Numbered from the stretch's first letter, positions 35,717 to 58,121 are shown. The stretch: DNA of 64,000 bases from Deltaproteobacteria bacterium (GCA_016218765.1 JACRCZ010000144.1:43269-107268), one strand, 5' to 3'. Notes: generated from the sequence alone by a model not told the origin. A program made the numbers and translations.

Positions 35717-36499
35717 CTACTTCTTCCCGGGCTTGCCCTTCGCCTCGCCACCCTTGCCCTTCGCCTCGGGTCCCTTGGCCCCGGCCGCCGCAGGAGCACC
35801 GGGAGCCGCAGGAGCGCCGGGAGCCGCGGGAGCACCAGGAGCCGCAGGAGCACCGGGAGCCGCAGGAGCACCGGGCACCGTAGGAGCACCCTCGACCGGC
35901 GCACCTTCCACGGCCGCCGCCTCCTCGGCCTTCGGCTCGGCCTCGGGCGCGATCACCGCGACGATCGCCTGCGCCGGATCCAGCCGGAGCTGCACGCCCT
36001 CGGGCAGCTTGAGCTGGCCCGCCTTGAACGAATGCCCGATCCCCAGCTCGCTGATGTCCACCTCGATCTTCACCGGAATCTTCGCCGGCAGACAGCGCAT
36101 CGGAATCTCGCGGAAGACCACGATCAGCCGCCCGCCGAACTCCTCGCCTTTGGACTTGCCCGTCGTCACCACGGGAATCCGGACGTCGACCGGCTTCTCG
36201 GGATCGACCGTGATGAAATCCACGTGCAACAGGTCCCGCAACACCGCATGCGCATGGTGGTCCTGCACCATCGCCAACACCGACTTCCCGTCCCCGGCGA
36301 ACTTCAGCTCGACCACCTGGTTCAATCCCAGCTCGTTGGCCATCATGCGGCGCAGCTTCTTGCCGTCGAACGCGATGGCCGTCGACGGCAGCGCAGGGCC
36401 GTACACCACGCCCGGCACCAGGCCGCGCGCACGCAGCCGCCGCGCAGGTCCCTTCCCACGCTCCGTCCGCAACTCGATCTCCAGCTTCTGGAATTCCAT
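35717..36499 (-). CDS. rplY: 50S ribosomal protein L25/Ctc with PGAPAA-repeat C-terminal tail
   Basis: RERGKGPARRLRA.G.VPGVVYG N-terminal L25 motif and Ctc-type beta-barrel region. The C-terminus has (APGAPA)n then a Lys/Gly tail. Confidence 0.9.
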   Translation of the reverse strand: MEFQKLEIELRTERGKGPARRLRARGLVPGVVYGPALPSTAIAFDGKKLRRMMANELGLNQVVELKFAGDGKSVLAMVQDHHAHAVLRDLLHVDFITVDPEKPVDVRIPVVTTGKSKGEEFGGRLIVVFREIPMRCLPAKIPVKIEVDISELGIGHSFKAGQLKLPEGVQLRLDPAQAIVAVIAPEAEPKAEEAAAVEGAPVEGAPTVPGAPAAPGAPAAPGAPAAPGAPAAPGAPAAAGAKGPEAKGKGGEAKGKPGKK

Positions 36500-37012: not shown

Positions 37013-38413
37013 ATGCACCTGGACCGCTGGCTCGGGTTCGCGACGACGAGACCGTCTGCCGCCGTCTGGTTTGCCCTCGCGTGTGCCACGTGCGACGCCC
37101 GCACCCCGTGCCTCGTCGGGGACGCCGCACCCGACGGTGAGGCCGACGTCGGGACGGAGGACGTCGGGGCCGTTGCCGTTGCCGATGCCACCGGCACGGA
37201 CGTGGAGTCCGCGCCCTGGGGCTGCCCGGATCTTCCCTGCTCGACCCCTTGCCGTCCCGTCCCGTCGGCCTCTCGTATCTTCCTCGGTTGGGGACATGCC
37301 GTGGCAGCGGGGTTCAGCGCGTCCGGCGACACCATCGCGTTTGCGCTCGACGCGCTCGGTTCCGGCGTAATCCCAAGCCGGCATGGGCTGGAGCACGTCG
37401 TCGTACGTTACGGCACCGGCACGTCCGAGCCGCGCGCGATCTGGCCGCACGGAGCATTCGCGGCGGCGTGGAGCGGAGTCGAGTTCGCCGCGTTTGCGTG
37501 GGCAGGCACGGACGACACCGTCCGGTTTCTGCGCTTCGGGGAGGACGGTGCGCTTCGGGCGAGCGTGACCGTAACCGCGGCGCATGACTGGCTTGCGGAC
37601 GCGACCATGCTCTGGACGGGCACGGCATACGTGCTGGCGCAGTCCGAGTTGACGTTGCGGATGGTTGCAGCGGACGGCACCCTCGGCGACCCGTTCTTCC
37701 GGCTCCACGACATCCTGGGCCGGTTCCGCTACGTTTGGGCGTGGTACATCGCGTGGGGTCCCTCTGGTCCGGGGCTTCTCGTCGTCGACTACCCTTGGGC
37801 GGCCGGCTATCCCGAGCCGTCCCGCGTGAGCTTCCTATTGCTCGATTCGGAGGGCCGGGAGGTGTACCGCCCCCTGCCGGTCGGCCTGGGCCCTCTTCCG
37901 CTCGACGAGGTGGATGGCGTGACGTTCCATCCAGCCCCGTTCGGCTTCGTCGTTCTCGCCGTCGTGCCCGTGGCAGAGGAGGACCCCGGGCGGCCGACGG
38001 ATCGCCTGCGACTCCGCCGGGGCGAGGTGAGGGTGGTGCTGTTGTCCGACGGAGGCGAAACGCTTGCAGGGCCGTTGGTGGTCGACACCGTGGATGCGCT
38101 CAACCGCCCGCTATGGCCGGCCGCCACCTATGCCGACGCCGCGGCCACCGAACGGGATGCCCTGGTCGCGTACTACCGCCAGAACATCGACGTCGAAACC
38201 ACAGAGGATCCCATCGACGATGAGCGGAACGCCACGACTCGATTGCGGACCGTGGCGCTGGACGGAACCGTCGGCGACGCGGTCGACCTGGACGAGCCGT
38301 TGTCCCACGTCCGCGTGTTGCGCTCGGGCGGCGTGGTTGCGGTCGCCGGCTCCCGCTTCTGGGGCTTTGACGTCGAGGATCAGGTCGTCCTATGGACCGG
38401 CTGCTGCGAATGA
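37013..38413 (+). CDS. Hypothetical lipoprotein
   Basis: ATG 37013 gives MHLDRWLGFATTRPSAAVWFALAC (lipobox). No family recognised. The stop overlaps the next start (ATGA). Confidence 0.55.
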   Translation: MHLDRWLGFATTRPSAAVWFALACATCDARTPCLVGDAAPDGEADVGTEDVGAVAVADATGTDVESAPWGCPDLPCSTPCRPVPSASRIFLGWGHAVAAGFSASGDTIAFALDALGSGVIPSRHGLEHVVVRYGTGTSEPRAIWPHGAFAAAWSGVEFAAFAWAGTDDTVRFLRFGEDGALRASVTVTAAHDWLADATMLWTGTAYVLAQSELTLRMVAADGTLGDPFFRLHDILGRFRYVWAWYIAWGPSGPGLLVVDYPWAAGYPEPSRVSFLLLDSEGREVYRPLPVGLGPLPLDEVDGVTFHPAPFGFVVLAVVPVAEEDPGRPTDRLRLRRGEVRVVLLSDGGETLAGPLVVDTVDALNRPLWPAATYADAAATERDALVAYYRQNIDVETTEDPIDDERNATTRLRTVALDGTVGDAVDLDEPLSHVRVLRSGGVVAVAGSRFWGFDVEDQVVLWTGCCE

Positions 38414-40644
38414 CCGCCGGTGCGGGACGCGTTCGCCGCTTTCTGGCGGTGACGGCAGCCCTTGCCGCTTGCATTCGCTGTTCGACCGGCCGCCACCTCG
38501 GAGGCGATGCCGAGGAGCACGATGACGGATCACCGGCCGTCTGCGGCAACGGGGTCGTCGACGACGGCGAGGAGTGCGACGGCGAGCCGCCATCGCCGTG
38601 TACCACGGCCTGTGGCTCGGCCGGCCAACGTCGCTGCCGCGACTGCCGATGGGATGTCGAATGCTCGCCGCCGGACGAGATCTGGAACGGGACCGACGAC
38701 GACTGCGACACCGTCTGCGACGACGGATTCGGTTGTTGCGCCGAATGGGTCGGTACGTGTGCGACGGACTGCGGATCGACGGGACGGGGCGAGTGCTCCG
38801 ACTCCTGCGTCCAGGTGTCCTGCGTTCCGCCCCGGCTCGAGATCTGCAACGGCGCGGACGACGACTGCGACGGGCGGGTGGACGAGGAAGTGTGGTGCCC
38901 CGACGCCGAATCCCCGTTCCCGTGGTTCCTCGCGACCCCCTGGGCGTCGGCGCGGGACGACCTCTGGGCTTCGGTCGGGCATGGGGCGCTGGCGCGCTGG
39001 GACGGCGAACGGTGGACGGCCTACTGCGCGGACACGGCCGAGTCGCTGCTCGACTTGTGGGGCTCGGGCGTCGACGATGTCTGGGGCGTGGGAAGCGGAG
39101 GAACCATCGCGCACTGGGACGGCGTCGAGTGGCGCTCGTCCGTCGTCCTGCGGGGAACCAACACCGATCTGCACGGCGTGGGGGGCGGCGGCCGGGCCGA
39201 CGTCTGGGCGGTCGGCGAAGGCGGCACGATCCTCCACTGGGACGGGACGAGGTGGGGGATCACCCCGAGCGCGACCACGGCGAACCTGCGCGCCGTGCGT
39301 GCGAGCGGCGCGCGTGACGCATGGGCCGTCGGGGCCACCGGAGCGGTCGTGCACTGGGACGGCGAAGCGTGGCGCGCCGTGTCCTCGGGCTTCGCGACGG
39401 ACTTGTATGACGTGCTCTCGTTCGGGCCGAGCGACGCCTGGATCGTCGGCGCCGAGGCGCTTCTGGCGCACTGGGACGGGTCCGGCTGGTCGCGGATCGC
39501 CCTCGACGGAACCGTGCCCCTGCGGGCGTTGTTTGGTGCTTCGTCCGACGATGTCTGGGTCGTCGGGTACGGCACGACGCTGCTGCACTGGGACGGTGCA
39601 AGTTGGCAGGAAGCCACGGCACCCTCGGGATGTGACGCATGGTACTTCGACCTGGCGGGGACCGCGGCCGACGACGTCTGGGCGGTCGGCAGCCCCGACT
39701 TTTTCGACCCGGGGTGCCGACTCCTGAACTGGGACGGGTCCGCGTGGCTCGCGGTGGCGCCTCCCTTATCGGTCATGTTCGAGGACGTTTCGGGAAGTGC
39801 CGACGACGACATCTGGGCCGTCGGGCTGGGTGAGACCGGCGGTGTCGTCGTACACGGCGACGGGGTGGCATGGGACCGGCGCGGGCTCGGCTCGTGGCCA
39901 CGCGGGGTCTGGGCCTCGGCTTCCGGCGACGCCTGGGTGGCTGACCCGCCCGACAGCGGCTCGTCGTCGGACCTCTGGCACTGGGACGGTTCCACGTGGC
40001 GGCCCGTCGATCACCCGGCCGGCTCCCCAGTCGCATTCTGGGGATCTTCGCCCAGCGACGTTTGGGTCGCGGCCTACGGCATTCAGCACTGGGACGGCAT
40101 TGCCTGGACGGTCGTGCCGGGACCGTACGGCCTATCGTTCTCCGGCTTCCTGCAGTCCGTCTGGGGATTCGCTCCGGACGACGTCTGGGTGGGCGGGTCC
40201 GGCGAGTGGGTGGAGTTCTGCGGCGACTGCTGGAACGTGCCCGGCATCTTCCATTGGGACGGTCTTGCGTGGTCCCAGGCCTGGGGGGATTGGTGGCCCC
40301 GCGACTCCTCCGTCGTGGACATCTGGGGTGCCAGCTCCGACGACGTCTGGGCGATCAAACGGGATGTGCTCGACGAGGCTTGGGCATCAACGCTGTTGCA
40401 CGGGAACGGCTCGGAATGGTGGCCGGACGATGTGGAACTGGGCGAGATCCACGCGTCGGCGCTGGGCGGCGCGAGTCCCGACGACGTCTGGGTGGTGGGG
40501 GGCGGGGGTGCGGTGCACTGGGACGGCGTCACCTGGTCGCGCGCCGCCTGCTTCCCCGGGTTGTATGAACCCAAGCTCTGGACGGCGCCTTCGGGCGACG
40601 TCTGGGTCGCGGGCTGGCCGGGGATCCTCCATCGCCGGCCGTGA
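38410..40644 (+). CDS. Lipoprotein with Myxococcus-type Cys-rich repeat region and ~13 'DVWAVG..HWDGxxW' propeller-like repeats
   Basis: Lipobox LAAC. CGNGVVDDGEECD motif. There are 13 roughly 40-aa repeats ending in (H/R/N)WDGxxW. The alternative ATG 38392 would overlap the upstream gene by 22 nt. Confidence 0.75.
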   Translation: MTAGAGRVRRFLAVTAALAACIRCSTGRHLGGDAEEHDDGSPAVCGNGVVDDGEECDGEPPSPCTTACGSAGQRRCRDCRWDVECSPPDEIWNGTDDDCDTVCDDGFGCCAEWVGTCATDCGSTGRGECSDSCVQVSCVPPRLEICNGADDDCDGRVDEEVWCPDAESPFPWFLATPWASARDDLWASVGHGALARWDGERWTAYCADTAESLLDLWGSGVDDVWGVGSGGTIAHWDGVEWRSSVVLRGTNTDLHGVGGGGRADVWAVGEGGTILHWDGTRWGITPSATTANLRAVRASGARDAWAVGATGAVVHWDGEAWRAVSSGFATDLYDVLSFGPSDAWIVGAEALLAHWDGSGWSRIALDGTVPLRALFGASSDDVWVVGYGTTLLHWDGASWQEATAPSGCDAWYFDLAGTAADDVWAVGSPDFFDPGCRLLNWDGSAWLAVAPPLSVMFEDVSGSADDDIWAVGLGETGGVVVHGDGVAWDRRGLGSWPRGVWASASGDAWVADPPDSGSSSDLWHWDGSTWRPVDHPAGSPVAFWGSSPSDVWVAAYGIQHWDGIAWTVVPGPYGLSFSGFLQSVWGFAPDDVWVGGSGEWVEFCGDCWNVPGIFHWDGLAWSQAWGDWWPRDSSVVDIWGASSDDVWAIKRDVLDEAWASTLLHGNGSEWWPDDVELGEIHASALGGASPDDVWVVGGGGAVHWDGVTWSRAACFPGLYEPKLWTAPSGDVWVAGWPGILHRRP

Positions 40645-40678
40645 TGGCCGGTCGGCGGCCAGGGAAGGTGGGGCAACC

Positions 40679-41242
40679 GTGATCAGGTGTCCGCCGCGGC
40701 CGCTGTTGGTCCTGTCGGCTGCCTCAGCCGCCGCCTTTTCGTGTTGGATGAGCCACGAGCCGTCGCCGTCCGCCGATTCCGGCCCCGCCGCAAACTCGCT
40801 CGAAGCGGCACTTGTGCCGGACGACGATGCCCACTGGATCGACTGCTTCCCGGTGAGCCCGTGTCACACCTATTCCGACTTCCACGTTCAGTTCACCAAC
40901 GCCGGGCCGACGTTCGTCACGGGTATCTACGTGGACTCGCTCGAAGCGGCCGCCGATCGACCGGATGCCTCCCCGTTCCTCCGCTGCGAAGGGCCGGCCA
41001 ACGCCGGGTGGCGCGGCAGTTCCGGTTTCACCGTCGACGACCCCGGAGTCCTTCGGCCGGGCGAGACTGTCGACGTCTGGTACGACTACTTTGCGCGGAC
41101 GGTCGAGGAGTACTGGTTTGACCTGCCCGACATGTGGGAACACCCCTCCCGCGACTTCTACCTCTTCGCCCAGGTTGTTTTCGACGGCGGCGAGACCCGC
41201 GTCGTTGCAGGGCCTTGGCGATTGATTTGCTGTTCCTACTGA
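40679..41242 (+). CDS. Small hypothetical secreted/lipoprotein
   Basis: GTG 40679. Signal-like PRPLLVLSAASAAAFSC. 187 aa with normal composition. It is convergent with the subtilase gene. Confidence 0.5.
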   Translation: MIRCPPRPLLVLSAASAAAFSCWMSHEPSPSADSGPAANSLEAALVPDDDAHWIDCFPVSPCHTYSDFHVQFTNAGPTFVTGIYVDSLEAAADRPDASPFLRCEGPANAGWRGSSGFTVDDPGVLRPGETVDVWYDYFARTVEEYWFDLPDMWEHPSRDFYLFAQVVFDGGETRVVAGPWRLICCSY

Positions 41243-41274
41243 TCAGGTTCCCCGCGCCTGACGCGCGTCGTCCT

Positions 41275-43818
41275 TCACCCGACCTCGACCTCGTTGACGG
41301 GGATCCCGACGAGGTTGGCGATCGGCGTCCAGACGTCGACGTCGACCTTGTCCGTCTCGATGGAAACGACGAGCGCGTACCGCGCGCCGAACTTGCTGCG
41401 GTCACGCTTGGGCTGCTCCTTCCACCACCCGCTCACCGGGAAGACGGCGATCGCGTTGCGCGCGGCGAGCTCGGCGGCCGTGCCGGACCACGTGTCCGAA
41501 TGCAGCGATCCCTTCTCGCGCGTCCTGCTCCCGAGGAACCACACGTCCGAGGCTGTGCCGCCTTTCGGCTTCTTCTCGTCATCGTCGAGCGCCACCCTGT
41601 TCACGCGCTTGCGGAACGTGTCTTCCTTCTCGGTGGGCCTGATGACCGCGAACCGCAACCCGTGCGAGGCGTAGTCGTGCCGCTTCTTCCAGCCGCACCT
41701 CGCCGGGTTCGGCTCCACGAAGTACGACAGCGTCACGCGCAAGGTGACCGGCAACTCGCCGAGCGAGCGCAGCACGTCCGTCGGCCAAGGAAGGCGGTGG
41801 AGGGTCATCTCCCCCATCTTCCCTTCCGCGAACGGGCGGATCGTGTCCTGGACGACCAGCGTTGCCGTGTTGCTCGCGCTCCACAGCGCGCGGGTCGCAT
41901 CCGGAACGCCGTAGCCGTACCGTCGCAGGAGCCGCCGCCGATCGGTCTTGCTGGCGGGATCGAACTGCGCGCGCATCGCCGGGGTCCATCGCGCGGAGTG
42001 GACGATAAGGGCCCGGATCGTCTCGGGCCAGAAGTCCGGATAGTCGGCGAGGATGAGCCCGCCGATCCGCGCCACCTGCGCGACCGCGGCGCTCGTCGCC
42101 CACGATTCCACGAAGAGACGCTTGGCCGGCTGCCAGTTCGTCGTCAAGACGGAGAGCGACGGGACCCCGGGTGCGACCTGCTTTCCCGACGGCGAGCAGG
42201 CCAAGTTCCCGCCCTCGAAGACGACGTCAGGCTTGAGCGGCCAGGCATCCTGGAACGTCAGCGACGTGGTGCTGTACGGCGAGAGCTCTCCCCCCGGAGC
42301 GAGACCATGCCATCCGTCGCCCAGCCCGCCTGGATCGGCGACACCGATGAGTTCGGTACAGGCGCCCACGGTGAGCGCGTTCCAAGCCTGGGCCGGATCA
42401 TGCACCGCCGTGGTGTCGCTGTCCGCGAGGTGGTCGCGACTCGACTCCTTGACCTGCAGGTCGCCGGCGCTGAGAAGAAACAGCCGGTGCGCAGTTTGCT
42501 CCGCGTCGTTCAGGTAGACGAGGCCCCTGGTGTCGGCATCGAAGCTGCGGCCGGCGGCGAGGGAATCGATGGCTGCGGACCACGACGTCGGTCGCCCCCG
42601 GTGACGGCAGGTCCCATCCGTGACCGCCGACGAGAAGCAGCGCCGCCGGTCCGGCGCCTGGATCTCCACCAACGACGACGCCTCCGCCGTGATCGCACCG
42701 TACAACTCCGGCCTGTTCTCCGGCTTCCCGGGCGGCGGCAGGATCTTCACGGATTCGAGCCGGTGCCGCAACGTGACCGGCGCGGCGCTCGCGAGGACCG
42801 GACCAAGGTCCCCGTACAGGGCCAGCCCGCCCATCTCCGTGCCGTGGCCGTCGTGGTCTGCCTTGCCCCACGACGAGTCGCATGCGTGCGTGTCGTCTTC
42901 AGCCAAAGCGCGGTCGAGCAGCGGGTGCAGGCGGTTGATGCCTGTATCCAGGACGCAGACGGCAGGGCCGTCCGGTTCGTCGGGAGGGCCGCTCGTGCGG
43001 TCGACGAGTTCCTTCGCCGCGACTGCCTGCTCGTGCGGGTCCAAGTCGGCGAAGGCTCCCAAGCTGGCGTTCGGCCGGCGCAGCTCCGCGATGCTGTCGA
43101 GCACGTCCAGCGAGGAGGTCAGCTGCTCCGGGGTTGCGAAAATGAGCGTCACCGTGCGGTCGTCGAAGACCAGGCGGCGGGATGCGACGAGCATTCCGGG
43201 CTGCGACGCCGCGAACGCAACGAGCCGTTCGGCCTCGCCACCCAGGTGCCGGCGGAGCCAGACCTCCCACCAAGTCCCACGCCCCGGCTCGGGGAAGTCC
43301 TCTGGGTCGTCCGTCCATAGCGCCCGGATCGTCGCCCTCCGGATCGCGGCGATGCGGTCGACCATGTCGCGATGCCGTGCCTCGCCGCTCCGACTCTTCT
43401 CGCTCATGTACTTGTCGAGCCGCGACAGGAATGTCTTGACCGCTCCGTAGGGAACGAAGACGGCGGCCATCTGGACCTTCCTCCCGTCCCGTTCGGACTC
43501 CGTGACGGCCAGCAGCTCGATGCCGGAGCGTTGGTTCTCCAGGCTTCCCAGGTTGAGCTCGACCCCCGGCGGGCTCTCGAAGAGGATCCGGACGCCGGGC
43601 TTGGTACCCGGGATGGGCTCGGCGATCGGCAACGCGCTCCGTCGTGCTTCCTCGACGGCGGCGTTGAGGGCGCGTATCAGCCGGGAGGCGTGCGCCTTCG
43701 GATTCGCAGGCCGCGGCGGCGGAAGCGGTGGCTCGATGGCCTGCGGATGCGGCTGATAGCGCTCCCGCTCCGCGCGCTCCCGAATGTGGATGTGCCTTCG
43801 ACGAGGGGATTCCCGCAC
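41275..43818 (-). CDS. Cytoplasmic S8 subtilase-domain protein, IetS-like
   Basis: Catalytic motifs AVCVLDTGI (Asp), DHDGHGTEMGGLA (His) and SWATSAAVAQVA (Ser) lie in the middle of an 847-aa protein. No signal peptide. The ~290-aa N-terminal and ~200-aa C-terminal regions are unrecognised. Confidence 0.8.
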   Translation of the reverse strand: MRESPRRRHIHIRERAERERYQPHPQAIEPPLPPPRPANPKAHASRLIRALNAAVEEARRSALPIAEPIPGTKPGVRILFESPPGVELNLGSLENQRSGIELLAVTESERDGRKVQMAAVFVPYGAVKTFLSRLDKYMSEKSRSGEARHRDMVDRIAAIRRATIRALWTDDPEDFPEPGRGTWWEVWLRRHLGGEAERLVAFAASQPGMLVASRRLVFDDRTVTLIFATPEQLTSSLDVLDSIAELRRPNASLGAFADLDPHEQAVAAKELVDRTSGPPDEPDGPAVCVLDTGINRLHPLLDRALAEDDTHACDSSWGKADHDGHGTEMGGLALYGDLGPVLASAAPVTLRHRLESVKILPPPGKPENRPELYGAITAEASSLVEIQAPDRRRCFSSAVTDGTCRHRGRPTSWSAAIDSLAAGRSFDADTRGLVYLNDAEQTAHRLFLLSAGDLQVKESSRDHLADSDTTAVHDPAQAWNALTVGACTELIGVADPGGLGDGWHGLAPGGELSPYSTTSLTFQDAWPLKPDVVFEGGNLACSPSGKQVAPGVPSLSVLTTNWQPAKRLFVESWATSAAVAQVARIGGLILADYPDFWPETIRALIVHSARWTPAMRAQFDPASKTDRRRLLRRYGYGVPDATRALWSASNTATLVVQDTIRPFAEGKMGEMTLHRLPWPTDVLRSLGELPVTLRVTLSYFVEPNPARCGWKKRHDYASHGLRFAVIRPTEKEDTFRKRVNRVALDDDEKKPKGGTASDVWFLGSRTREKGSLHSDTWSGTAAELAARNAIAVFPVSGWWKEQPKRDRSKFGARYALVVSIETDKVDVDVWTPIANLVGIPVNEVEVG

Positions 43819-43832
43819 GTCCGATGCCTTCC

Positions 43833-44828
43833 CTACTGCGAGGACCGGTCAGCGGCGCGACGCTCGTTCAGCGCGGAGACCAGCGCCTCGGTGTCGGTCG
43901 CGGTCGAGCGGGCCAGGATCGCGTTCTTCGCGGCGTGTTCGCAGGCGCGCGTGATTTCGGCGTGGCTCAACCCATCGGCGGCACGTGCCGCGCGCGGCCA
44001 GTCGAGCCGTGACGTGTCCAGCGGAGCCAGCCGCCCCCGCATGACCTCCTCGGCCATCGCTGCCGACGGCAGGCCGTACGTCACGACGCTGTCGAACCGC
44101 CGGAATAGCGCGCGATCAAGGATCTGGGGGTGGTTGGTGGCCGCGACGATCAGGCTGTCGGATTCGTCCTGCTCCAGGAAGAGCAGGAAGGAATTCAGCA
44201 CACGGCGGATCTCGCCGACGTCGTTGCGCGCGGTGCGTTCGCCGCCGAGCGCGTCGAACTCGTCGAACAAGTAGACCGCGCGCGTGCGCTGGATGGCGTC
44301 GAAGATCAGCCTGAGCTTCGCCGCCGTCTCTCCCATGAATTTCGTGATCAGGCCGTCAAGCTGGATGGTGAAGAGCGGCAGGCCCAACTCGCCTGCCAGC
44401 GCCGACGCGGTCATCGTCTTGCCGGTTCCCGGCGGACCGATGAGCAGGATCTTCCGGAGCGGCGAGAAGCCCCCTGCCTGGATGCGTTCGCGCTGCCGTT
44501 GTTCGAGCAGGACGCGCTCAATCCGGGCCCCCACCGCGTCCTCCAGAACCATGTCGGCCAAGTGCACCTTCTGGTAGCTGACCGTGAGCAGGCCGGCCAG
44601 TTCGCCGCGCGGCTGCACGACCGGGACGGGCTTCATCCGCGGCGCGATCGGCTCGCGGCCGGCGTGCGCGCGCGCTGCCTCGATCAGCTCCCGCAGCTCG
44701 TGGGCAAACTTCGCGTGGCCGTTCCGCGCAGCCTGGGCTGCGACCTGGAGCGCCACGGCGTAGAATCGCTCCTCGTCGCCGTCAACGTGACATCGAACAA
44801 GAGCCTTGAGCTGGTCCGCGGTCGCCAT
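43833..44828 (-). CDS. Classical AAA ATPase, IetA-like
   Basis: ATG 44828 preceded by GGGAGGG. Walker A GPPGTGKT, Walker B YLFDEFD, ATNHPQILDRALFRRF second region of homology. 14-nt gap to the subtilase gene. Confidence 0.85.
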   Translation of the reverse strand: MATADQLKALVRCHVDGDEERFYAVALQVAAQAARNGHAKFAHELRELIEAARAHAGREPIAPRMKPVPVVQPRGELAGLLTVSYQKVHLADMVLEDAVGARIERVLLEQRQRERIQAGGFSPLRKILLIGPPGTGKTMTASALAGELGLPLFTIQLDGLITKFMGETAAKLRLIFDAIQRTRAVYLFDEFDALGGERTARNDVGEIRRVLNSFLLFLEQDESDSLIVAATNHPQILDRALFRRFDSVVTYGLPSAAMAEEVMRGRLAPLDTSRLDWPRAARAADGLSHAEITRACEHAAKNAILARSTATDTEALVSALNERRAADRSSQ

Positions 44829-44942
44829 CCACCCTCCCGGCGCTACCCTAACACCTTGGCGGCCCGTTTCGCCGATCGAACATGGTCGATTCGACCACGT
44901 ATCGATGGGTCCGGCAAGTCTTTGACCCGCATCCCTGGCCCG

Positions 44943-45021
44943 CGCCCGATTGGCCGTCGCGGCACGCTGCATCCAAGGCAACTGGTACCCGGTGGCGATC
45001 GAAATGACGTGGATCTCGTAG
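44943..45021 (+). repeat. 79-bp direct repeat, copy B
   Basis: Offset of 8342 nt from copy A. The perfect core is 44954-45002. Flanks outside the 79 bp are unrelated. Confidence 0.95.
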
Positions 45022-45109
45022 CCCCGCACCCTCCGGCGGCGGATCCCGCGGCCACGGTCGGCCGTAGGATGGCCATGCTCGCGACGGCCGCAGGCCAGGG
45101 AGGAACCCG

Positions 45110-45526
45110 ATGAACCCGAAACTCCGCGCAGCGATGACGGTCACGACCCTGCTCGCGCTCGGCTGCGGCTCGAACGCTCCACCCGCACCGCACACCCCGC
45201 CCGCCTCCGCGACGACAACCGGATCGCCCGCCGGCGACCACCCCGCCGACGAAGGCACCAAAGCCTGCCTGCCTCTCGCGGTCTGCGGCTGCATCACGGA
45301 AGAGTGCGTCGGCGGAGTCGCCTACCCCGACGGCCTCTTCCGCGCCACGACCGGTCCGCAAACAGGACGGGACCTGCTGCACACGCGCGAATGCACCGCG
45401 ATCGGCGGCGCGCTCTCCTGCCACTTCGAATACGTCGACGCCTCCATGGCGTGCACCGAAACTTGTCGCCCCACCTACGCCGGCTTCTCCTGCGCCTGGC
45501 TCGGCGACGACTGCGTCGTCCGCTGA
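45110..45526 (+). CDS. Small Cys-rich lipoprotein
   Basis: GGGAGGAA RBS and lipobox LLALGC. 10 Cys in the mature part. Confidence 0.6.
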   Translation: MNPKLRAAMTVTTLLALGCGSNAPPAPHTPPASATTTGSPAGDHPADEGTKACLPLAVCGCITEECVGGVAYPDGLFRATTGPQTGRDLLHTRECTAIGGALSCHFEYVDASMACTETCRPTYAGFSCAWLGDDCVVR

Positions 45527-45576
45527 TCGCTCGCCACCCCAACCCCCGCCGTCCCACAACGTACAGCTCCTCCTCC

Positions 45577-45665
45577 CCATCTGTGTCCATCTGTGTCCAT
45601 CTGTGGTTTCCCTTCTTCCCCTCCCCCCCTCCCTATCTGTCTCCATCTGTGGTTTCCTTTCTTGC
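45577..45665 (+). repeat. Repeats of CCATCTGTG(T/G): 3 tandem copies plus a 21-nt duplicate CCATCTGTGGTTTCCYTTCTT
   Basis: Tandem copies at 45577, 45587 and 45597. The 21-mer occurs at 45597-45617 and 45643-45663. It lies 15-100 nt upstream of the FHA gene start. Confidence 0.85.
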
Positions 45666-45679
45666 GGGAGGAACGCCGC

Positions 45680-48055
45680 ATGGCCTTCCTGTGGATCACC
45701 AATCGAGGACAACAGGCGGGGGAAGGACGGCGCTGGGAACTCACGCGCGAACGCATGTTCCTCGGCCGCAGCCCCGACAACGACATCGTCATCGAGGCCG
45801 AAGGCGTCTCGCGACGTCACGCGCAGCTCGCACGCACCCCGCAAGGCTGGGTCCTGAGCGACCTCGGCAGCGCGAACGGCTCGTGGATCGGCACGCAGCG
45901 CGTCGGCAACGTGCTCCTCTCCGACGGCCTCTCCGTACGCCTGGGCGAAGCACTCGTCACCTTCCGCGACCTCGCCGCAGGACCGACCACCTTCGTCCCC
46001 GCTCCCGCCGCCCCGCCCGCGACCGCCCCGGGAGCCCCCCCGAGCGCCCCCGCACGGAGCCCGGGCCCGCGCCCCGCCGCACGACCGGGACTCTCGCCCG
46101 CGGCCATCTGGGCCATCGCCTTCGGCGTGCTGGCTCTCGCCGCCGGCGCCGTGCTGCTCGCCTACCTCGTCGAGCGCGACCGGGAAACCGACGAACTCGC
46201 CGCCGCGGGGGCCGGCGAGCTGCCGGAACCGCTCCGCGGCCTGGGCCCGCTCGCCCAGCTCACGGGAACGAAAGCGGAAGGCGAGCTCGCGACCGGAGGA
46301 AGCGACGTCGCGCTCGGCGACGGCGCAAGCCTCGTCGCCGCGGCAGGCGCGCTCCCGCGCCCGGTCCGCGTCTCCGTGCGCCGCATCGACCTCGCCCTGG
46401 ACGTGCTCGACGTCGGCATCCGCCGCTCCTGGGCCTACGACCTGCGCACGGACGCCGACGTCGAATCGTTCGGCGCACCCGTGGCCATCGAGATCCCTCG
46501 CCCGGCCGAGTTCATCGCGGCCGCGTTCTGGGACGGACACGCCTGGCACCTCTCGGCCGTCGAACGCGGTCCGGACGGCAACGCTCGAATCCTCGTCGCC
46601 CACTTCTCGAACCCGCTGTTCGCCATCCTGGAATTCTTCGAGCGAATCTCGGCGCGCACGCAACGCACCAACCAGGCCATCCTCGGCGAGGACTCGCCGG
46701 AGTCCAAACTGCGCCAGACGATCGATCGACACGGATCCCCGGGAGCCCGCACCTTCGGCGGCGTCGGCGAGACGCTCTCCGGACGGACGCACGCGCAGCT
46801 CTGCGACGAGATCGCAGGCGTCATCCGCTCCTTCCCGGGCGTCCGCACCTCCTTCCCCTGGAGCTCGCACTTCACCAACAACCAGCTCCGCGACTTCCTC
46901 CAGGGCGGCGACTCGCCCTCCGTGGCGGGCGGCTACTTCTGGGACCTGACCAAGGACCGCATGGACGGCATCCGGCAAGGACTCCTCGCCTCGCCGGGAC
47001 AGGTCACCCCGGGCCAGTTCCTCGGAATCTGCCTGCGCGAGTGCAACGGCAACGTCAACCTCGCTGTGCTCGCGTGCCACAACTTCCTCAAGGAAGTCAC
47101 CCACCAGGGACGCTACCAGGGACTGAACGTCAGCGAGGAGTGGGCCGCACCCGTCGCGAAACTCCTCACCTGGCGGACCGAGGACGTCAGCCCGGCAGGC
47201 CACTACGACAAGATGGGCCCCCTCTACCACCTGTTCGCCGCCATGACCGCCGGTGTCTGGTTCAACGGCCTGAGCGCCGGAGGATACGCCGCCGCAACCG
47301 CCGAAGCACTGCTGCGGACCTTCAGCCACGGAGGCGACCGGCCCGACCCGGAAAAAGGACAAGCCGACGCCTGCGGCGCCACCATCGCAACCCTCGTACG
47401 CGCCCAGGCCCTGGGCCTCGGCACCACACCACCGTCGCCTCCCGCGCCGCTGCCCGCCGAAGACGCGGGGACGCCCCCGCCCCCTCCGGACGCCGGCTCG
47501 GAAGACGGCTCCGAAGGCTTCGAGGCGGAACAGACCGAGCCGGATGCCGTGGACGTCGAAGACCTCGAGGACGAGCCGGAGGACGTCGACGACGAAGAAG
47601 AGGAAGGCGAGGACGGGAATCCGTTCGACGCGGAACCGGCTCCGGCGACCGAACACCAGGAATGGGTCGGGCGATGGCGCGGTGAGGCCCGGGCGAGCAT
47701 CGACATCGACGGCCTCGCCGTCGTGGACCGGCAGCCGCTGGATCTCACCCTCACCCGACTCGACGAGACCACCGTGCGACTCTCCGACGGCGCCAAGACG
47801 CTCGACATGCGCCTGTCCGCCACCAACCCGAACGTCTCGTTCGGCCGCAACGAGATTCCGATTCCCATGCTCGGCGGGATGATCGGCGAAGGACACATGG
47901 TCTACGAGGCGACGGCCTTCCTGCGCGACGGCCGCCTCTACTTCGCGTTCCGCTCGGTCGCGACCGCGACCGGACATCTCCCGATCCCCGACGCGCCGGA
48001 CGTCACCTCGACCACCACCATCGACGCCCTCGCCATCCTCTCCCGCGTGCCGTAG
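45680..48055 (+). CDS. FHA-domain single-pass membrane protein with large uncharacterised ectodomain
   Basis: ATG 45680. FHA core FLGRSPDNDIVIEAEGVSRRHAQL..LSDLGSANGSWI. TM helix AAIWAIAFGVLALAAGAVLLAYL. About 560 aa after the TM, including an acidic linker. Confidence 0.8.
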   Translation: MAFLWITNRGQQAGEGRRWELTRERMFLGRSPDNDIVIEAEGVSRRHAQLARTPQGWVLSDLGSANGSWIGTQRVGNVLLSDGLSVRLGEALVTFRDLAAGPTTFVPAPAAPPATAPGAPPSAPARSPGPRPAARPGLSPAAIWAIAFGVLALAAGAVLLAYLVERDRETDELAAAGAGELPEPLRGLGPLAQLTGTKAEGELATGGSDVALGDGASLVAAAGALPRPVRVSVRRIDLALDVLDVGIRRSWAYDLRTDADVESFGAPVAIEIPRPAEFIAAAFWDGHAWHLSAVERGPDGNARILVAHFSNPLFAILEFFERISARTQRTNQAILGEDSPESKLRQTIDRHGSPGARTFGGVGETLSGRTHAQLCDEIAGVIRSFPGVRTSFPWSSHFTNNQLRDFLQGGDSPSVAGGYFWDLTKDRMDGIRQGLLASPGQVTPGQFLGICLRECNGNVNLAVLACHNFLKEVTHQGRYQGLNVSEEWAAPVAKLLTWRTEDVSPAGHYDKMGPLYHLFAAMTAGVWFNGLSAGGYAAATAEALLRTFSHGGDRPDPEKGQADACGATIATLVRAQALGLGTTPPSPPAPLPAEDAGTPPPPPDAGSEDGSEGFEAEQTEPDAVDVEDLEDEPEDVDDEEEEGEDGNPFDAEPAPATEHQEWVGRWRGEARASIDIDGLAVVDRQPLDLTLTRLDETTVRLSDGAKTLDMRLSATNPNVSFGRNEIPIPMLGGMIGEGHMVYEATAFLRDGRLYFAFRSVATATGHLPIPDAPDVTSTTTIDALAILSRVP

Positions 48056-54115: not shown

Positions 54116-55651
54116 TCACGGCTCCCCCCGCACCTGCACCCCCAGCGCACGCAGCCAACGGGCCGTCCGAAGACGCCGCTCCCGGCGCACCAGCGACTCC
54201 ACCCGGTGCAACGGGTCGTCGCGATACGGCAGGCCGGGCGAGAAGAGACACCGCAGCCGCACCCGGGCCGCCGCCAGCCGCGCCAGCTCGGGACGCAGCT
54301 CGTTCCACGCGCCAAGGTCGTCCAGGTCGGTGAACAGATGCACCTCGTGGGCACGGGCCCCCGTCCGGCGCGCCAGCGCCAGCGCGTCGCGGATCCCCGC
54401 CACACGCGCCTGCGCCGTGTAACGCTCCTGCACGGGGATCTCGATGCCCCGATCGAGGCAGAATCGCCGGAGCAGCACGTCGCCCGCGTCCTCGCCCCGC
54501 ACCGACCGCGCGGCCGCCGACGCCGACAGGCCCAGGCGTGCCACGGCGCCCACCACCGCCGCTCGATCGAAGAACGCACCGCGCAGCCCCGGAATCCGCG
54601 CGTCGACCCGCTCGTGCAACAAGAGGTAGCGCCCCACCACCTGCGCCAGCTCGTCGGCCGTCACGTCCGTCGCGTCGGCGTCGATGGGCTGGTACGCGTC
54701 GAGCAGCGCGTCCAGGAGCGGCGCGGCCGCCGCACGCCCGCCGCCAGGCGCCACGTGCTGCGACACCCGGTCGTCGAACAGGCACAGCCCGACCGCGTCG
54801 CCCCCACGCAACGCCGCCCGCATCAAAGCGTAGGACTCCGCCGCCAGCGCATCGAACGCCGCACGACCCCCGACCCGGCGCAGCGTCGCGGCCGACGCCT
54901 CCACCGCGACGAGATGACGCCGCGGCAGGTGCCGCTCGTACTCCTTGGTCAACAGCCGCCCGGCACGCGCCGACGGACGCCACGCGATGCGGCGGAACGG
55001 GTCGCCGAAACGGTGGTCGCGGATGTCGCGCAGGTCGGCGTCGTCCCCCGCCACGTTCGGAGCACGGATCCGCGGCAACGGGCCCCGCACCTCGGACCGC
55101 CCGCGGCCGGGCCGCGGCACCCGCGCCGCAAGCTGCGCGGGCAGCACCTTGAGACGCAACGGCGTGGGAAAGTACAGCCGATGGCGGAACAACCCGAGCG
55201 GCGTCGAAATCCAGAGCAGCATCCCGTGCAACACCAGCGTGCCGGGTGCCAGAGGCACGATGCGAATCCGGTGCCGCAGCTCCCGCCCCGCCGGGATCGG
55301 CGGCAAACGCAGTGAACGACGGTCCGGCGCGACTCGCCCCCCCGCGAAGACGTCCGCACGGTCGACGGGCAGACGCAACGGAGACGGATTGCGCACCGCG
55401 ACGTCGATCGCGATCGGTCGCCCCGCAACCGGCCGCACCGCCCGCTCGGCCGGCCCCCACCCCAAACGTAGATTCCCCTCCCGGAAACGCGCCGGACCCG
55501 CCGCCCCCAGCACCGCATCGACCACCAACGGCGCGGCCGCACACGTGGCGAGGAAAACCAGGGTCGGCGACGCCGCCAGCAGGCCGAAGCCCAGCAGGAG
55601 GATCGCAAGCGTCGCGGCGAGGATCCCGCCCGCCGACAACGTCAGGCGCAT
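54116..55651 (-). CDS. DUF58-domain protein (MoxR partner)
   Basis: Two N-terminal TM helices. DLRDIRDHRFGDPFRRIAWRPSARAGRLLTKEYE is the DUF58 hallmark. It lies downstream of moxR. Confidence 0.85.
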   Translation of the reverse strand: MRLTLSAGGILAATLAILLLGFGLLAASPTLVFLATCAAAPLVVDAVLGAAGPARFREGNLRLGWGPAERAVRPVAGRPIAIDVAVRNPSPLRLPVDRADVFAGGRVAPDRRSLRLPPIPAGRELRHRIRIVPLAPGTLVLHGMLLWISTPLGLFRHRLYFPTPLRLKVLPAQLAARVPRPGRGRSEVRGPLPRIRAPNVAGDDADLRDIRDHRFGDPFRRIAWRPSARAGRLLTKEYERHLPRRHLVAVEASAATLRRVGGRAAFDALAAESYALMRAALRGGDAVGLCLFDDRVSQHVAPGGGRAAAAPLLDALLDAYQPIDADATDVTADELAQVVGRYLLLHERVDARIPGLRGAFFDRAAVVGAVARLGLSASAAARSVRGEDAGDVLLRRFCLDRGIEIPVQERYTAQARVAGIRDALALARRTGARAHEVHLFTDLDDLGAWNELRPELARLAAARVRLRCLFSPGLPYRDDPLHRVESLVRRERRLRTARWLRALGVQVRGEP

Positions 55652-55726
55652 CGCAACTCGCCACTCACGACGGCCGACTCGCGACCGCCCACGCGAACCC
55701 CACGATGGCGCCCGTCGCCATGATGC

Positions 55727-56674
55727 TCAACCCTTGCCCCGGGGCCGATGCGGAATCTGCGCCAGCGCCTGGTCGATCCGCGCGTCGGGATCGAAACCCG
55801 CGGCCGCGGCGTCGGGAGTCGGAAGCAGACGGTGCCGGAACACGGGCTTCGCCATCGCCATCACGTCCTCCGGAAGCACGAAGTCGCGCTCCGACAGCAC
55901 CGCCAGCGCCTTCGACGCCTGCAGCAGGTTGAGCGCCGCCCGCGGCGAGGGACCCAGCACCAGCGCGTCGTCGTCGCGCAAATGACGCGCCAACCCCGCC
56001 ACGTACGCGACCAGATCGGACTCGACGTGCGTGCGCGCCACCGCCTCCTGCAACACCAGCACGTCCGCCGCCGTCATGCACAACCCCGTCCGCGGCGCCG
56101 CCGCACCGTAGCGCTCCAGCATCGTCACCTCGTCCTCGAGCGACGGATAATGCAGGTCGATGCGCAGCAGGAAACGGTCGAGCTGCGCCTCGGGCAGCGG
56201 GAACGTGCCCTCCGTCTCCACGGGGTTCTGCGTCGCCACCACGAGGACCGGCGACGGCAGCTCGCGCGTCACCCCCTCGATCGTCACCTGGCGCTCCTGC
56301 ATCGCCTCCAGCATCGCCGACTGCGTCTTGGCCGGCGCACGGTTGATCTCGTCCCCCAGTACGAGCTGCGCGAAAATCGGACCCTCGTGCAAGTGGAACG
56401 TCGCATCCTTGGGGTTGAAGACGTGCGTGCCGACGATGTCCGAAGGCAGAAGGTCGGCCGTGAACTGGATGCGCGAGAAACGCAGGTCGAGCGCCGAGGC
56501 GAAGGCGCGCGCCAGCGTCGTCTTCGCGATGCCGGGAACACCCTCGATCAGCACGTGGCCGCGCGCCAACAGCGCCGCCAGAAGCTGCCGCACCACGTCG
56601 GCAGGCCCGAAATAGGCGTTGCGGATCTCGGCGGCGGCGCGGCGCAGGCGTTGGGCAGGAGACGTCGCTTCCAT
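55727..56674 (-). CDS. moxR: MoxR-family AAA+ ATPase
   Basis: ATG 56674. GHVLIEGVPGIAKT, LLPSDIVG, LGDEINRAPAKTQSAMLEAMQERQVT, ATQNPVE..EAQLDRF motifs. Confidence 0.92.
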   Translation of the reverse strand: MEATSPAQRLRRAAAEIRNAYFGPADVVRQLLAALLARGHVLIEGVPGIAKTTLARAFASALDLRFSRIQFTADLLPSDIVGTHVFNPKDATFHLHEGPIFAQLVLGDEINRAPAKTQSAMLEAMQERQVTIEGVTRELPSPVLVVATQNPVETEGTFPLPEAQLDRFLLRIDLHYPSLEDEVTMLERYGAAAPRTGLCMTAADVLVLQEAVARTHVESDLVAYVAGLARHLRDDDALVLGPSPRAALNLLQASKALAVLSERDFVLPEDVMAMAKPVFRHRLLPTPDAAAAGFDPDARIDQALAQIPHRPRGKG

Positions 56675-56786
56675 GGCCGCAGAGTCTACCAAACAATTGA
56701 AGGCCGTTGGTGCGGTGTTGCCGCACGCGGCGCGCCCTGCTAGGTTGAACGGTGCGCATGAGGGGGACGCGGGTGGAGGACGAGTG

Positions 56787-58121
56787 ATGCGGAAACGCAG
56801 GCGACAACCGGGGTTGCGCCTGTGCCTGGCGACGGCGGCGGCCGGTGCGGTCGCCGCGCTGCTCGCCGCACACGCCTGCGCGACCCAGGACGTCCGGTGC
56901 GGCAACGGCGTCGTGGATCCCGGCGAGGAATGCGACGACAACAACCTCAGCAACGACGACCGCTGCACCAAGTTCTGCCGCCTCTCGATCTGCGGCGACG
57001 GGATCATCGAACGCTCCTCCGAACAGTGCGACGACCGCGGCACCGTGCCGGGCGACGGCTGCGACGCCGCCTGCCGCCGCGAAGGCATGGAGTGCGGCGA
57101 CGGTACCCTGGACGACGTCGGGTCCTGGCCCGAGGAATGCGACGACGGGAACACCACCGACGGCGACGGCTGCTCCGCCAACTGCTTCAACGAAATCGGT
57201 ACCTGCGGCGACGGCACCCGACAGTACGGCGAGGAATGCGACGACGGAAACACGACGCCGTGCGACGGCTGCGACGAGGACTGCCGCACCGAGACCGCAG
57301 GCTCCTGCGACGCCGACGCGACCACCGAGACCGATGCGCCCGACGCCCCGGACGGCGACGCGCGGGACGGCGACGCCGCCGACGGCGACGGCCGGGACGC
57401 CGAAACCGTCGATGGCGAAACGGGCGACGCGGAGTTCGTCGAAGGCGACGGGCGCGACGGCGACGTCGCCGACGGCGACGCGGCCGACGGGGACGGTGAC
57501 GCCGCCGAGGCGCGGGACGGGTGGGACTGCACCGACCCCGTGTGCGACCTGGCGCCCCAGTGCGGCTGCGGCTCGGGCGAGAAATGCACCCTCATCGGCT
57601 CCGGCCGCGGCTGCGGACCGACGGGGTTCCTGGCCGAAGGCCGCGCCTGCACCAGCGACTCGGAGTGCGGAAGCGGCCTCTACTGCGCACCCGCCGTGGA
57701 CACCAGCGTCTTCTTCTGCCACCGCTTCTGCGAGGCGGACGGCGACTGCCTCGGCCCAGGCTCGCGCTGCCTCGTGCCCATCACCGGCGGCTCCCCACCC
57801 ACGACCCTGGGCACCCTCTGCACCGTGAACTGCGACCTCGAGTCCGGGTCCGGCTGCCCGGAAGGCGCCCGCTGCAAGGTCTTCTCCGACGCGGACGGCG
57901 ACTACCTCACCGACTGCTCGGGCGAGGTCGGCAGCGGCCGCCTCGGTCACGCCTGCTCCGACGAATCCGACTGCGCCGCGGGATACTTCTGCTCCCCCTC
58001 CTTCCCCACCTGCCTCCAGTACTGCGTCTTCCCGGACGGCTACTGCGACGGCGGCTACGTCTGCCGCTCCTTCGCGCCGCCCGTCCTCATCGGCACGCGC
58101 ACCTACGGATACTGCGGGTGA
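56787..58121 (+). CDS. Lipoprotein with four Myxococcus-type Cys-rich repeats, Asp/Gly-rich linker and Cys-rich C-terminal domain
   Basis: Lipobox-like LLAAHAC. Repeats CGNGVVDPGEECDD.., CGDGIIE..EQCDD.., CGDGTLD..EECDDGN..DGC. Acidic (DGDxxDG)n linker. Confidence 0.8.
   Translation: MRKRRRQPGLRLCLATAAAGAVAALLAAHACATQDVRCGNGVVDPGEECDDNNLSNDDRCTKFCRLSICGDGIIERSSEQCDDRGTVPGDGCDAACRREGMECGDGTLDDVGSWPEECDDGNTTDGDGCSANCFNEIGTCGDGTRQYGEECDDGNTTPCDGCDEDCRTETAGSCDADATTETDAPDAPDGDARDGDAADGDGRDAETVDGETGDAEFVEGDGRDGDVADGDAADGDGDAAEARDGWDCTDPVCDLAPQCGCGSGEKCTLIGSGRGCGPTGFLAEGRACTSDSECGSGLYCAPAVDTSVFFCHRFCEADGDCLGPGSRCLVPITGGSPPTTLGTLCTVNCDLESGSGCPEGARCKVFSDADGDYLTDCSGEVGSGRLGHACSDESDCAAGYFCSPSFPTCLQYCVFPDGYCDGGYVCRSFAPPVLIGTRTYGYCG

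Follow-up and report, generated by a model that had tools for sequence, protein, structure and literature searches.

In bacteria, IetAS pairs consist of an AAA ATPase (IetA) and a subtilisin-like S8 protease (IetS). Their first description, as a plasmid-stabilising toxin-antitoxin in which the protease is the toxin and the ATPase the antitoxin, is attributed to Yamamoto et al. 2009 by later papers (PMC13069673). Phage protection was seen for homologues from Bacillus and E. coli (PMC13069673; 10.1101/2022.08.27.505566). It needs the protease activity of IetS, and constructs with a mutated ietA were unobtainable (PMC13069673). The system from B. cereus works through abortive infection, and expression of SPbeta YosG makes it toxic (10.1101/2022.08.27.505566), and an AAA-ATPase/subtilisin-like pair of Mycoplasma is functional as a toxin-antitoxin (PMC8562856). 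Here we analysed a stretch of 64,000 nucleotides (nt) from Deltaproteobacteria bacterium (GCA_016218765.1, JACRCZ010000144.1:43269-107268), referred to as the window, in which genes for an ATPase and an S8 protease lie side by side at positions 41275-44828. We propose that this pair is probably a chromosomal IetAS toxin-antitoxin defence module that was horizontally acquired within a segment of ~4.9 kb. When the pair was first noted from the sequence (the initial annotation), trigger and mechanism of such systems were both held to be unknown. Toxin and antitoxin roles, abortive infection and the YosG trigger are in fact on record; what stands of that statement is that the molecular mechanism of phage defence 'remains unknown' as of 2026 (PMC13069673), and we found no structure or molecular mechanism of IetAS in the literature.

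The two genes are adjacent and co-directional, with the ATPase gene 5' of the protease gene and 14 nt between them, as initially annotated; both lie on the minus strand, which had not been stated. Their features are the following.

43833-44828, minus strand: ietA, 331 amino acids (aa), ATG start; classical-clade AAA+ ATPase, predicted antitoxin/regulator
44832-44838, minus strand: ribosome-binding site GGGAGGG of ietA, 3 nt 5' of the ATG
44415-44438, minus strand: Walker A motif GPPGTGKT, IetA residues 131-138, with K137
44253-44270, minus strand: Walker B motif LFDEFD, IetA residues 187-192, with D189/E190
43819-43832, minus strand: ietA-ietS spacer, 14 nt, with a GGAAGG ribosome-binding site
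41275-43818, minus strand: ietS, 847 aa, GTG start; cytoplasmic subtilase, predicted toxin/effector
42964-43818, minus strand: IetS N-terminal domain Y4kK_N (PF27160), residues 1-285; family-specific
41908-42972, minus strand: IetS S8 catalytic domain, residues 283-637; Pfam Peptidase_S8
41278-41907, minus strand: IetS C-terminal domain, residues 638-847; mostly beta
42946-42948, 42844-42846 and 42091-42093, minus strand: IetS catalytic codons D291, H325 and S576; triad intact

The short spacer with its own ribosome-binding site implies an operon. In a sequence of ~70% GC, both genes have a GC content of 0.88 at third codon positions (GC3) and near 0.5 at second positions (GC2), and this coding pattern, together with domain E-values of ~1e-30 to 1e-70, argues against a chance pair of open reading frames (ORFs). 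IetA matches the PADLOC IetA model PDLC02196 at E 1.4e-70 over residues 2-327 of 331, and three more IetA models; IetS matches model PDLC02198 at E 2.5e-41 with partial coverage (residues 429-820), and five more IetS models. The two Pfam families suggested for checking in the initial annotation were recovered above their gathering cut-offs: AAA (PF00004) in IetA with E 6.3e-30 and 104.8 bits (cut-off 21.2), and Peptidase_S8 (PF00082) in IetS with E 5.6e-52 and 177.3 bits (cut-off 21.8) over profile positions 2-288 of 288. These model matches, and the strict gene linkage described below, bear out the earlier assignment as an ietAS-type pair.

As reference for the founder system we took the single ATPase/S8 protease pair of pTiC58 (NC_003065.3, 97873-101373); identities were measured against an Agrobacterium plasmid copy that is 95.4% nucleotide-identical to the pTiC58 pair. 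Gene order and a short spacer are common to founder and window pair, with 328 versus 331 aa for IetA and 836 versus 847 aa for IetS. Window IetA is 56% identical to the pTiC58-type protein over 326 aa, that is, full length. For IetS the identity is 41% over 816 aa (residues 43-834), collinear through the N-terminal, S8 and C-terminal domains; the first ~42 residues of the window protein are not alignable. On the other hand, the pTiC58 pair is plasmid-borne and has Asn in the oxyanion hole, whereas the window pair is chromosomal, in a Myxococcota-like metagenome-assembled genome (MAG), and has Asp at this position (D453, see below). The pTiC58 homologues Y4kL/Y4kK of Rhizobium pNGR234a belong to the same branch as the window pair. 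Since pTiC58 and window proteins score essentially equally on the PADLOC and NCBIfam models (239 versus 237 bits for IetA, 86 versus 140 for IetS, 199 versus 196 for IteA and 40 versus 46 for IteS), the window pair is an IetAS member at the level of the founder. By these alignments it is a somewhat divergent member of the pTiC58 / Y4kK-Y4kL branch and not a new system. The initial suggestion of a strongly divergent pair or a related new system was thus not borne out, given the founder's branch, the collinear identities and a very large family (3,575 IetS matches).

Three further described systems can be compared. The anti-phage ietAS (Gao et al. 2020; B. cereus m1293, E. coli ECOR52) shares the composition of AAA ATPase plus S8 protease and the PADLOC matches, but the NCBIfam IteS model aligns only with window residues 445-697, and it is from that sub-clade that the evidence for phage defence comes. 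The ietHAS system (Liu-DS4; PMC13069673, 2026) has the same ietA plus ietS core, but requires an adjacent SNF2 helicase gene, ietH; no helicase domain is present among the neighbours of the window pair. A 1044-aa ORF (44843-47977, minus strand) was considered as ietH and rejected: it is of low complexity (Gly/Arg/Ala), fails the GC3/GC2 test and runs antisense to a gene for an FHA-domain protein. Mycoplasma TA132/133 (PMC8562856) is likewise chromosomal, with the ATPase gene 5' of that for the S8 toxin (353 and 757 aa), but comes from a distant Gram-positive lineage and is likened here by description, not by sequence.

The 331-aa AAA protein carries all the motifs quoted for it initially, including ATNHPQILDRALFRRF, behind the GGGAGGG ribosome-binding site; its translation further contains a pore loop KFMG (residues 163-166), a sensor-1 ATN and the Arg fingers RRFD. 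Walker A and B, sensor 1, the Arg fingers and a pore loop of the form [KR]-[YF]-[LM]-G are invariant in 121 family sequences, and all of them are present in window IetA. A pore loop of this form is a hallmark of substrate threading in AAA+ unfoldases. IetA homologues are 326-333 aa long and 66-74% identical, one of them 92%. The longest ORF of 398 aa (GTG at 45029) was rejected as ietA because the homologues have this shorter length and align from residue 1 of the 331-aa version. At six near-invariant columns the window protein deviates, the family median being one.

For the 847-aa protein, the initial annotation of an intact triad and no signal peptide agrees with our motif search and hydropathy scan. 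The triad residues lie in VCVLDTGI (D291), HDGHGTEMGG (H325) and SWATSAAVA (S576). Outside the S8 domain, Pfam leaves 282 aa N-terminally and 210 aa C-terminally, close to the ~290 and ~200 aa estimated earlier. No signal peptide or membrane segment was detected in IetS, the maximal Kyte-Doolittle mean over 10 residues being -0.49 within the first 50 aa and that over 19 residues being 1.29 in the whole protein. The N-terminus is highly charged and conserved across homologues (H9, E19, Y21, P23 and H24 are nearly invariant), which indicates that the ietS start is not mis-called and, with the lack of hydrophobic segments, that the protease is cytoplasmic; the cytoplasmic reading thus stood up to the check for an alternative start or missed signal. 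Most S8 proteases are secreted, and two lipoprotein-like ORFs lie in the same genomic segment, which would suit a secreted protease served by the ATPase as its own chaperone or export partner. Such an arrangement is effectively refuted by the sequence, namely by the missing signal peptide and the family-wide charged N-terminus, to which comes that no linked secretion genes were seen in any locus examined.

Both regions flanking the S8 domain had been regarded as unassignable, which needs to be revised. The N-terminal one is Y4kK_N, precomputed on the database protein P0001, which is identical to window IetS, and on most homologues; since most homologues carry PF27160 plus PF00082, it is the family's own domain. 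Neither window IetS nor P0001 had an exact entry in the contig index. Its AlphaFold2 model (predicted local distance difference test, pLDDT, 78.7) starts with a long helix, after which come two alpha/beta ferredoxin-like modules. The Foldseek comparison, a check suggested initially, gave no match against the PDB at E <= 0.001 with this model; the weak top matches were tandem ACT, NikR-C and AHAS-regulatory ferredoxin-like folds, so that an ACT/ferredoxin-like fold class for Y4kK_N can serve as a weak lead only. An exhaustive search with residues 1-285 found at least 1,239 clusters at 50% identity. Among the best 150 of these 1,239 clusters we saw no other Y4kK_N architecture: the domain was always N-terminal, and no protein exceeded 869 aa. 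A word-indexed search returned IetS fragments only. The C-terminal domain, collinear with pTiC58-type IetS, is the best-conserved part of IetS family-wide (mean column conservation 0.78-0.84). The S8 domain itself is very divergent from solved subtilases: phmmer of IetS against the PDB found none of them and a family profile aligned with PDB subtilases only around the Asp/His and Ser regions. The whole-chain AlphaFold2 model is mediocre (pLDDT 64, residues 400-540 poor), and its Foldseek list contains only generic subtilases at TM-scores of 0.2-0.27, headed by Tk-SP, furin, Kex2 and PCSK9 (low, 0.24-0.27). In these enzymes a propeptide, a C-terminal beta-sandwich domain or both are retained, and the modelled likeness to them is to be taken as a hint only.

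IetS database searches gave 3,575 matches at E <= 1e-5. The best 120 were all full-length (799-856 aa, 53-59% identical); their sources are Myxococcota, Alphaproteobacteria, Cyanobacteriota and Longimicrobiales as well as many metagenomes. An ietA gene lay directly 5' of ietS and co-directional with it in seven of seven database loci and in all 72 metagenome loci with room upstream, that is, in 79/79 scorable loci. Spacers elsewhere measure 14-23 nt by gene calls in seven loci, and 3 nt in the Agrobacterium pair. A conserved third gene was not found among the 113 nearest flanking ORFs of 73 distinct loci. The commonest families in these ORFs were N6_Mtase (10), HsdM_N (8), Eco57I (8) and N6_N4_Mtase (4), followed by Methylase_S, ResIII and Resolvase/Recombinase (three each); these counts are descriptive and have no matched genomic background behind them. 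The neighbourhood check suggested in the initial annotation therefore gave strict linkage of ietA and ietS in varying surroundings, with restriction-modification genes commonest. For example, single loci combine type I restriction-modification genes with an integrase and Thoeris-like TIR genes or with a serine recombinase, or carry AbiEii. A published survey of E. coli reported that ietAS co-localises non-randomly with type III restriction-modification systems. Of 494 plasmid records with a homologue, 342 were conjugative (Klebsiella 213, Agrobacterium 54, Rhizobium 41); among phage-collection records, only two carried one.

Two observations concern other members of the family. In a Polyangiaceae MAG (L010, 10695-18532), ietAS is followed by a co-directional helix-turn-helix gene, a gene for a 1765-aa DEAD/Helicase_C/MZB protein and one for an SNF2-family helicase. 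Such an arrangement could represent a helicase-associated version of the module akin to ietHAS, or a separate system that adjoins the pair. In 12 of 80 metagenomic IetS homologues (L015, L019, L020, L025, L027, L030, L037, L040, L061, L063, L071 and L091), we found a 6-residue Gly-rich insertion (…DDGGGPGNMGHG…) directly before the catalytic His, which looks like a sub-clade marker near the active site.

The evidence that the pair is accessory comes from comparison with a sister MAG, a groundwater Deltaproteobacteria bacterium (L007). On the left of the pair, the window encodes DnaB, ribosomal protein L25, a 540-aa ORF without family and a 750-aa repeat protein; on the right follows the plus-strand gene for the FHA-domain protein. 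The 750-aa and FHA proteins have homologues in the sister MAG (76% and 80% identical, respectively) whose genes are ~160 nt apart, compared with ~4.9 kb in the window. The features of this region are as follows.

40660-45560, no strand: segment without counterpart in the sister MAG, ~4.9 kb; comparison with L007 (JACRCX010000048.1)
40679-41242, plus strand: 187-aa lipoprotein-like ORF inside the segment, flanking ietAS
45110-45526, plus strand: 138-aa lipoprotein ORF inside the segment; LALGC lipobox clearly recognisable, numerous Cys residues
44829-44922, minus strand: upstream leader/putative promoter region, which travels with the cassette; homology to L012
36601-36679: 79-nt direct repeat, left copy, ~100 nt 5' of the L25 gene
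44943-45021, plus strand: 79-nt direct repeat, right copy, ~115 nt 5' of ietA

Because the sister MAG has no such segment between these flanking genes, ietAS is accessory in this lineage; the difference may go back to an insertion in the window or a deletion in the sister MAG. Since GC3 equals that of the host genes, an insertion would be old or its donor of similar composition. The 187- and 138-aa ORFs had no Pfam or PADLOC match and are not conserved beside ietAS elsewhere. The closest ietA relative (92% at the amino acid level) is found on a 1.6-kb metagenome contig, L012, which shows 85.7% nucleotide homology from within ietS up to position 44922. The stop of this homology ~95 nt 5' of ietA marks this edge of the mobile unit. 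In L012, ietA directly follows an ORF with a type I methyltransferase-like C-terminus (identified by reading, not by a profile model). The leader shows no sigma-70 consensus; scans of 36.3-45.7 kb with Rfam and for promoters and terminators gave nothing credible. Landmarks of insertion are missing, as the window contains no tRNA and the segment no integrase.

The initial annotation had described the accessory segment as bounded by repeats. Its accessory nature was upheld, but the repeats do not delimit 40660-45560. The two copies are 94% identical, with zero matches expected by chance, and represent orphan remnants of a gene, namely its last ~20 codons (…WYPVAIEMTWIS, ending WYPVAIEMTWI). This gene is intact in the sister MAG as a 1004-aa ORF, with the matching 3' end at L007 2990-3073. 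The repeats suggest past rearrangement or recombination at a variable locus.

An alternative is that the pair serves regulatory or housekeeping proteolysis, with an AAA unfoldase that feeds or chaperones a cytoplasmic processing protease in host physiology. It would fit the place of IetA in the classical unfoldase clade, where proteasome-activating nucleotidase, FtsH and Cdc48 rank next after IteA in NCBIfam and the PDB matches are p97, NSF and AFG2, as well as the conserved pore loop and the position of the window locus amid ordinary chromosomal genes. Yet the sister MAG lacks the pair at the corresponding site, the neighbourhood of the pair differs in every homologous locus examined (with restriction-modification and recombinase genes commonest there), conjugative plasmids often carry members of the family, and homologues act experimentally as toxin-antitoxin or defence modules. 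We consider host proteolysis highly improbable as the role of this pair.

For the toxin-antitoxin defence module we suggest the following course of events. IetA would assemble into a classical AAA+ ring (hexamer). In the undisturbed cell, the ring with ATP may suppress IetS activity by binding to the protease or changing its shape, plausibly via the N-terminal domain of IetS. This restraint would be broken when a phage infects the cell or when the module is lost. IetS would then cleave essential cytoplasmic proteins and growth would stop, so that the infection is aborted or plasmid segregants are killed. We base the restraint by IetA on its invariant pore loop and on the N-terminal domain that is exclusive to IetS.

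A feature missed in the initial annotation is the replacement of the oxyanion-hole Asn of IetS by Asp.

42460-42462, minus strand: codon GAC for D453 in the oxyanion-hole motif SAG[N]; the family residue is Asn (AAC/AAT)

The change from Asn to Asp requires a single substitution at the first codon position. At the equivalent position, Asn is present in 120/120 database homologues, the Agrobacterium protein included, and in all 80 metagenome loci, one seeming exception being an alignment artefact. In subtilisin, the oxyanion tetrapeptide comprises Ala152-Gly154-Asn155 (PMC11593635). Aligning the family profile by hhalign with subtilisin BPN' covered only residues 285-367; the equivalence of D453 and Asn155 therefore rests on the motif and the order of elements, not on superposition. 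Replacement of Asn155 in subtilisin lowers kcat 150-300-fold and leaves Km unchanged (PMC4030948). By analogy, the exchange probably lowers the turnover rate of IetS, and the toxin arm of the window copy may be attenuated. The proprotein convertase PC2 has a natural Asp at the oxyanion position and is active all the same, so that Asp at 453 need not inactivate the protease. D453 could also be a consensus error of the MAG. We sought IetS relatives of more than 59% identity in order to date the exchange and found none in the protein database or among metagenome contigs; the lone close relative, on the 1.6-kb contig L012, ends before codon 453. D453 is the only distinctive trait of the window copy, and its significance is uncertain.

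Several points weigh against the interpretation as an IetAS toxin-antitoxin defence module. The restraint of IetS by IetA, like the IetS targets, is purely inferred, and the toxin-antitoxin and defence roles are carried over by analogy from other members of the family, none of them from Myxococcota. No defence model was matched by the neighbours of ietAS in the window. With 196.3 bits for IteA_antiphage (NF042959, cut-off 510) and 46.1 bits for IteS_antiphage (NF042956, cut-off 900), the window proteins stay far below the NCBIfam equivalog cut-offs, which places the pair outside the curated anti-phage sub-clade; these equivalogs are nevertheless their best NCBIfam matches, and the pTiC58 proteins fall below the cut-offs as well (198.8 and 39.9 bits). 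Asp453 is unique among 201 sequences, Asn being found in 200/200 homologues, and in view of the kcat loss on replacement of Asn155 the effector may be weak. Finally, window IetS sits on a long branch, with a mean family identity of 55.7% (median 66%) and deviations at 18 of the columns conserved to at least 95% (median three).

This raises the question if the window pair is an attenuated or decaying relic, in which a weak N453D protease is left as a harmless remnant, or IetA acts in 'anti-addiction' by neutralising IetS of incoming plasmids. The unique Asp, the long branch with its 18 substitutions and the missing defence genes nearby would agree with this, as would the host-like GC3 of an old insertion (or a similar donor) and the better conservation of IetA than of IetS (70-74% versus 53-59% identity to the best homologues other than the closest lineage). 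However, neither ORF is disrupted, IetS keeps 275 of 293 near-invariant columns along with the triad, all ATPase motifs are present, and the family member P0029 deviates to the same degree (21 columns). The activity of PC2 and a possible consensus error likewise speak against decay, and a relic seems rather unlikely to us. We give less credence still to a functional shift of window IetS, in which D453, the long branch and the isolated chromosomal setting would stem from the domestication of IetS as a protease that is slow or gated in another way; more generally, Y4kK_N with its predicted tandem ACT/ferredoxin-like modules might be a sensor for a small molecule or peptide, IetS ligand-gated, and IetA would reset rather than simply inhibit it.

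Besides the IetAS toxin-antitoxin defence module, which we favour, some features of the surrounding sequence deserve mention. The 750-aa protein left of the segment (38392-40644, plus strand) has a Cys-rich MopE-like N-terminal motif and no Pfam family at threshold; it contains ~7 units of 117-123 nt (~39-41 aa) of the form 'DVWAVG…HWDG..W' with a beta-propeller-like look. In the sister MAG, the region 5' of its gene (L007 3667-6586) resembles, by eye, DUF3800-type and IS4-like transposase genes, which is consistent with a variable hotspot. Directly 5' of the FHA-protein gene, pyrimidine-rich tandem repeats of the CCATCTGTGT type occupy 45568-45669, and an analogous repeat of the CTCTGCGT type is found at the same place in the sister MAG (L007 ~9900-9950); these repeats may be a conserved regulatory feature. 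The L25/Ctc gene (35717-36499, minus strand) has a 9-nt periodic repeat at 35760-35903 that encodes a Gly/Ala/Pro-rich low-complexity tail. Further to the right, 54116-57652 (minus strand) codes for a 641-aa MoxR-type AAA_3 ATPase with an N-terminal extension of ~330 aa, followed by a DUF58 protein. Between 48000 and 56000 the GC content reaches 0.74-0.755, and large ORFs nearby (890 and 628 aa) have no family.

At the level of the family, our results will hardly surprise the specialist, and the window copy matters modestly. The question for the family is by which means IetA holds IetS in check and which substrates IetS cleaves, for which the window copy is not more tractable than others. For future mechanistic work on IetAS, the two-gene linkage, the pore loop of IetA, the N-terminal domain exclusive to IetS and the restriction-modification neighbours should be useful. 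The window copy itself documents IetAS in a GC-rich, Myxococcota-like lineage, with a clean presence/absence polymorphism relative to a sister genome, and as a natural Asn-to-Asp variant of the oxyanion hole it could serve as an attenuated-toxin control.

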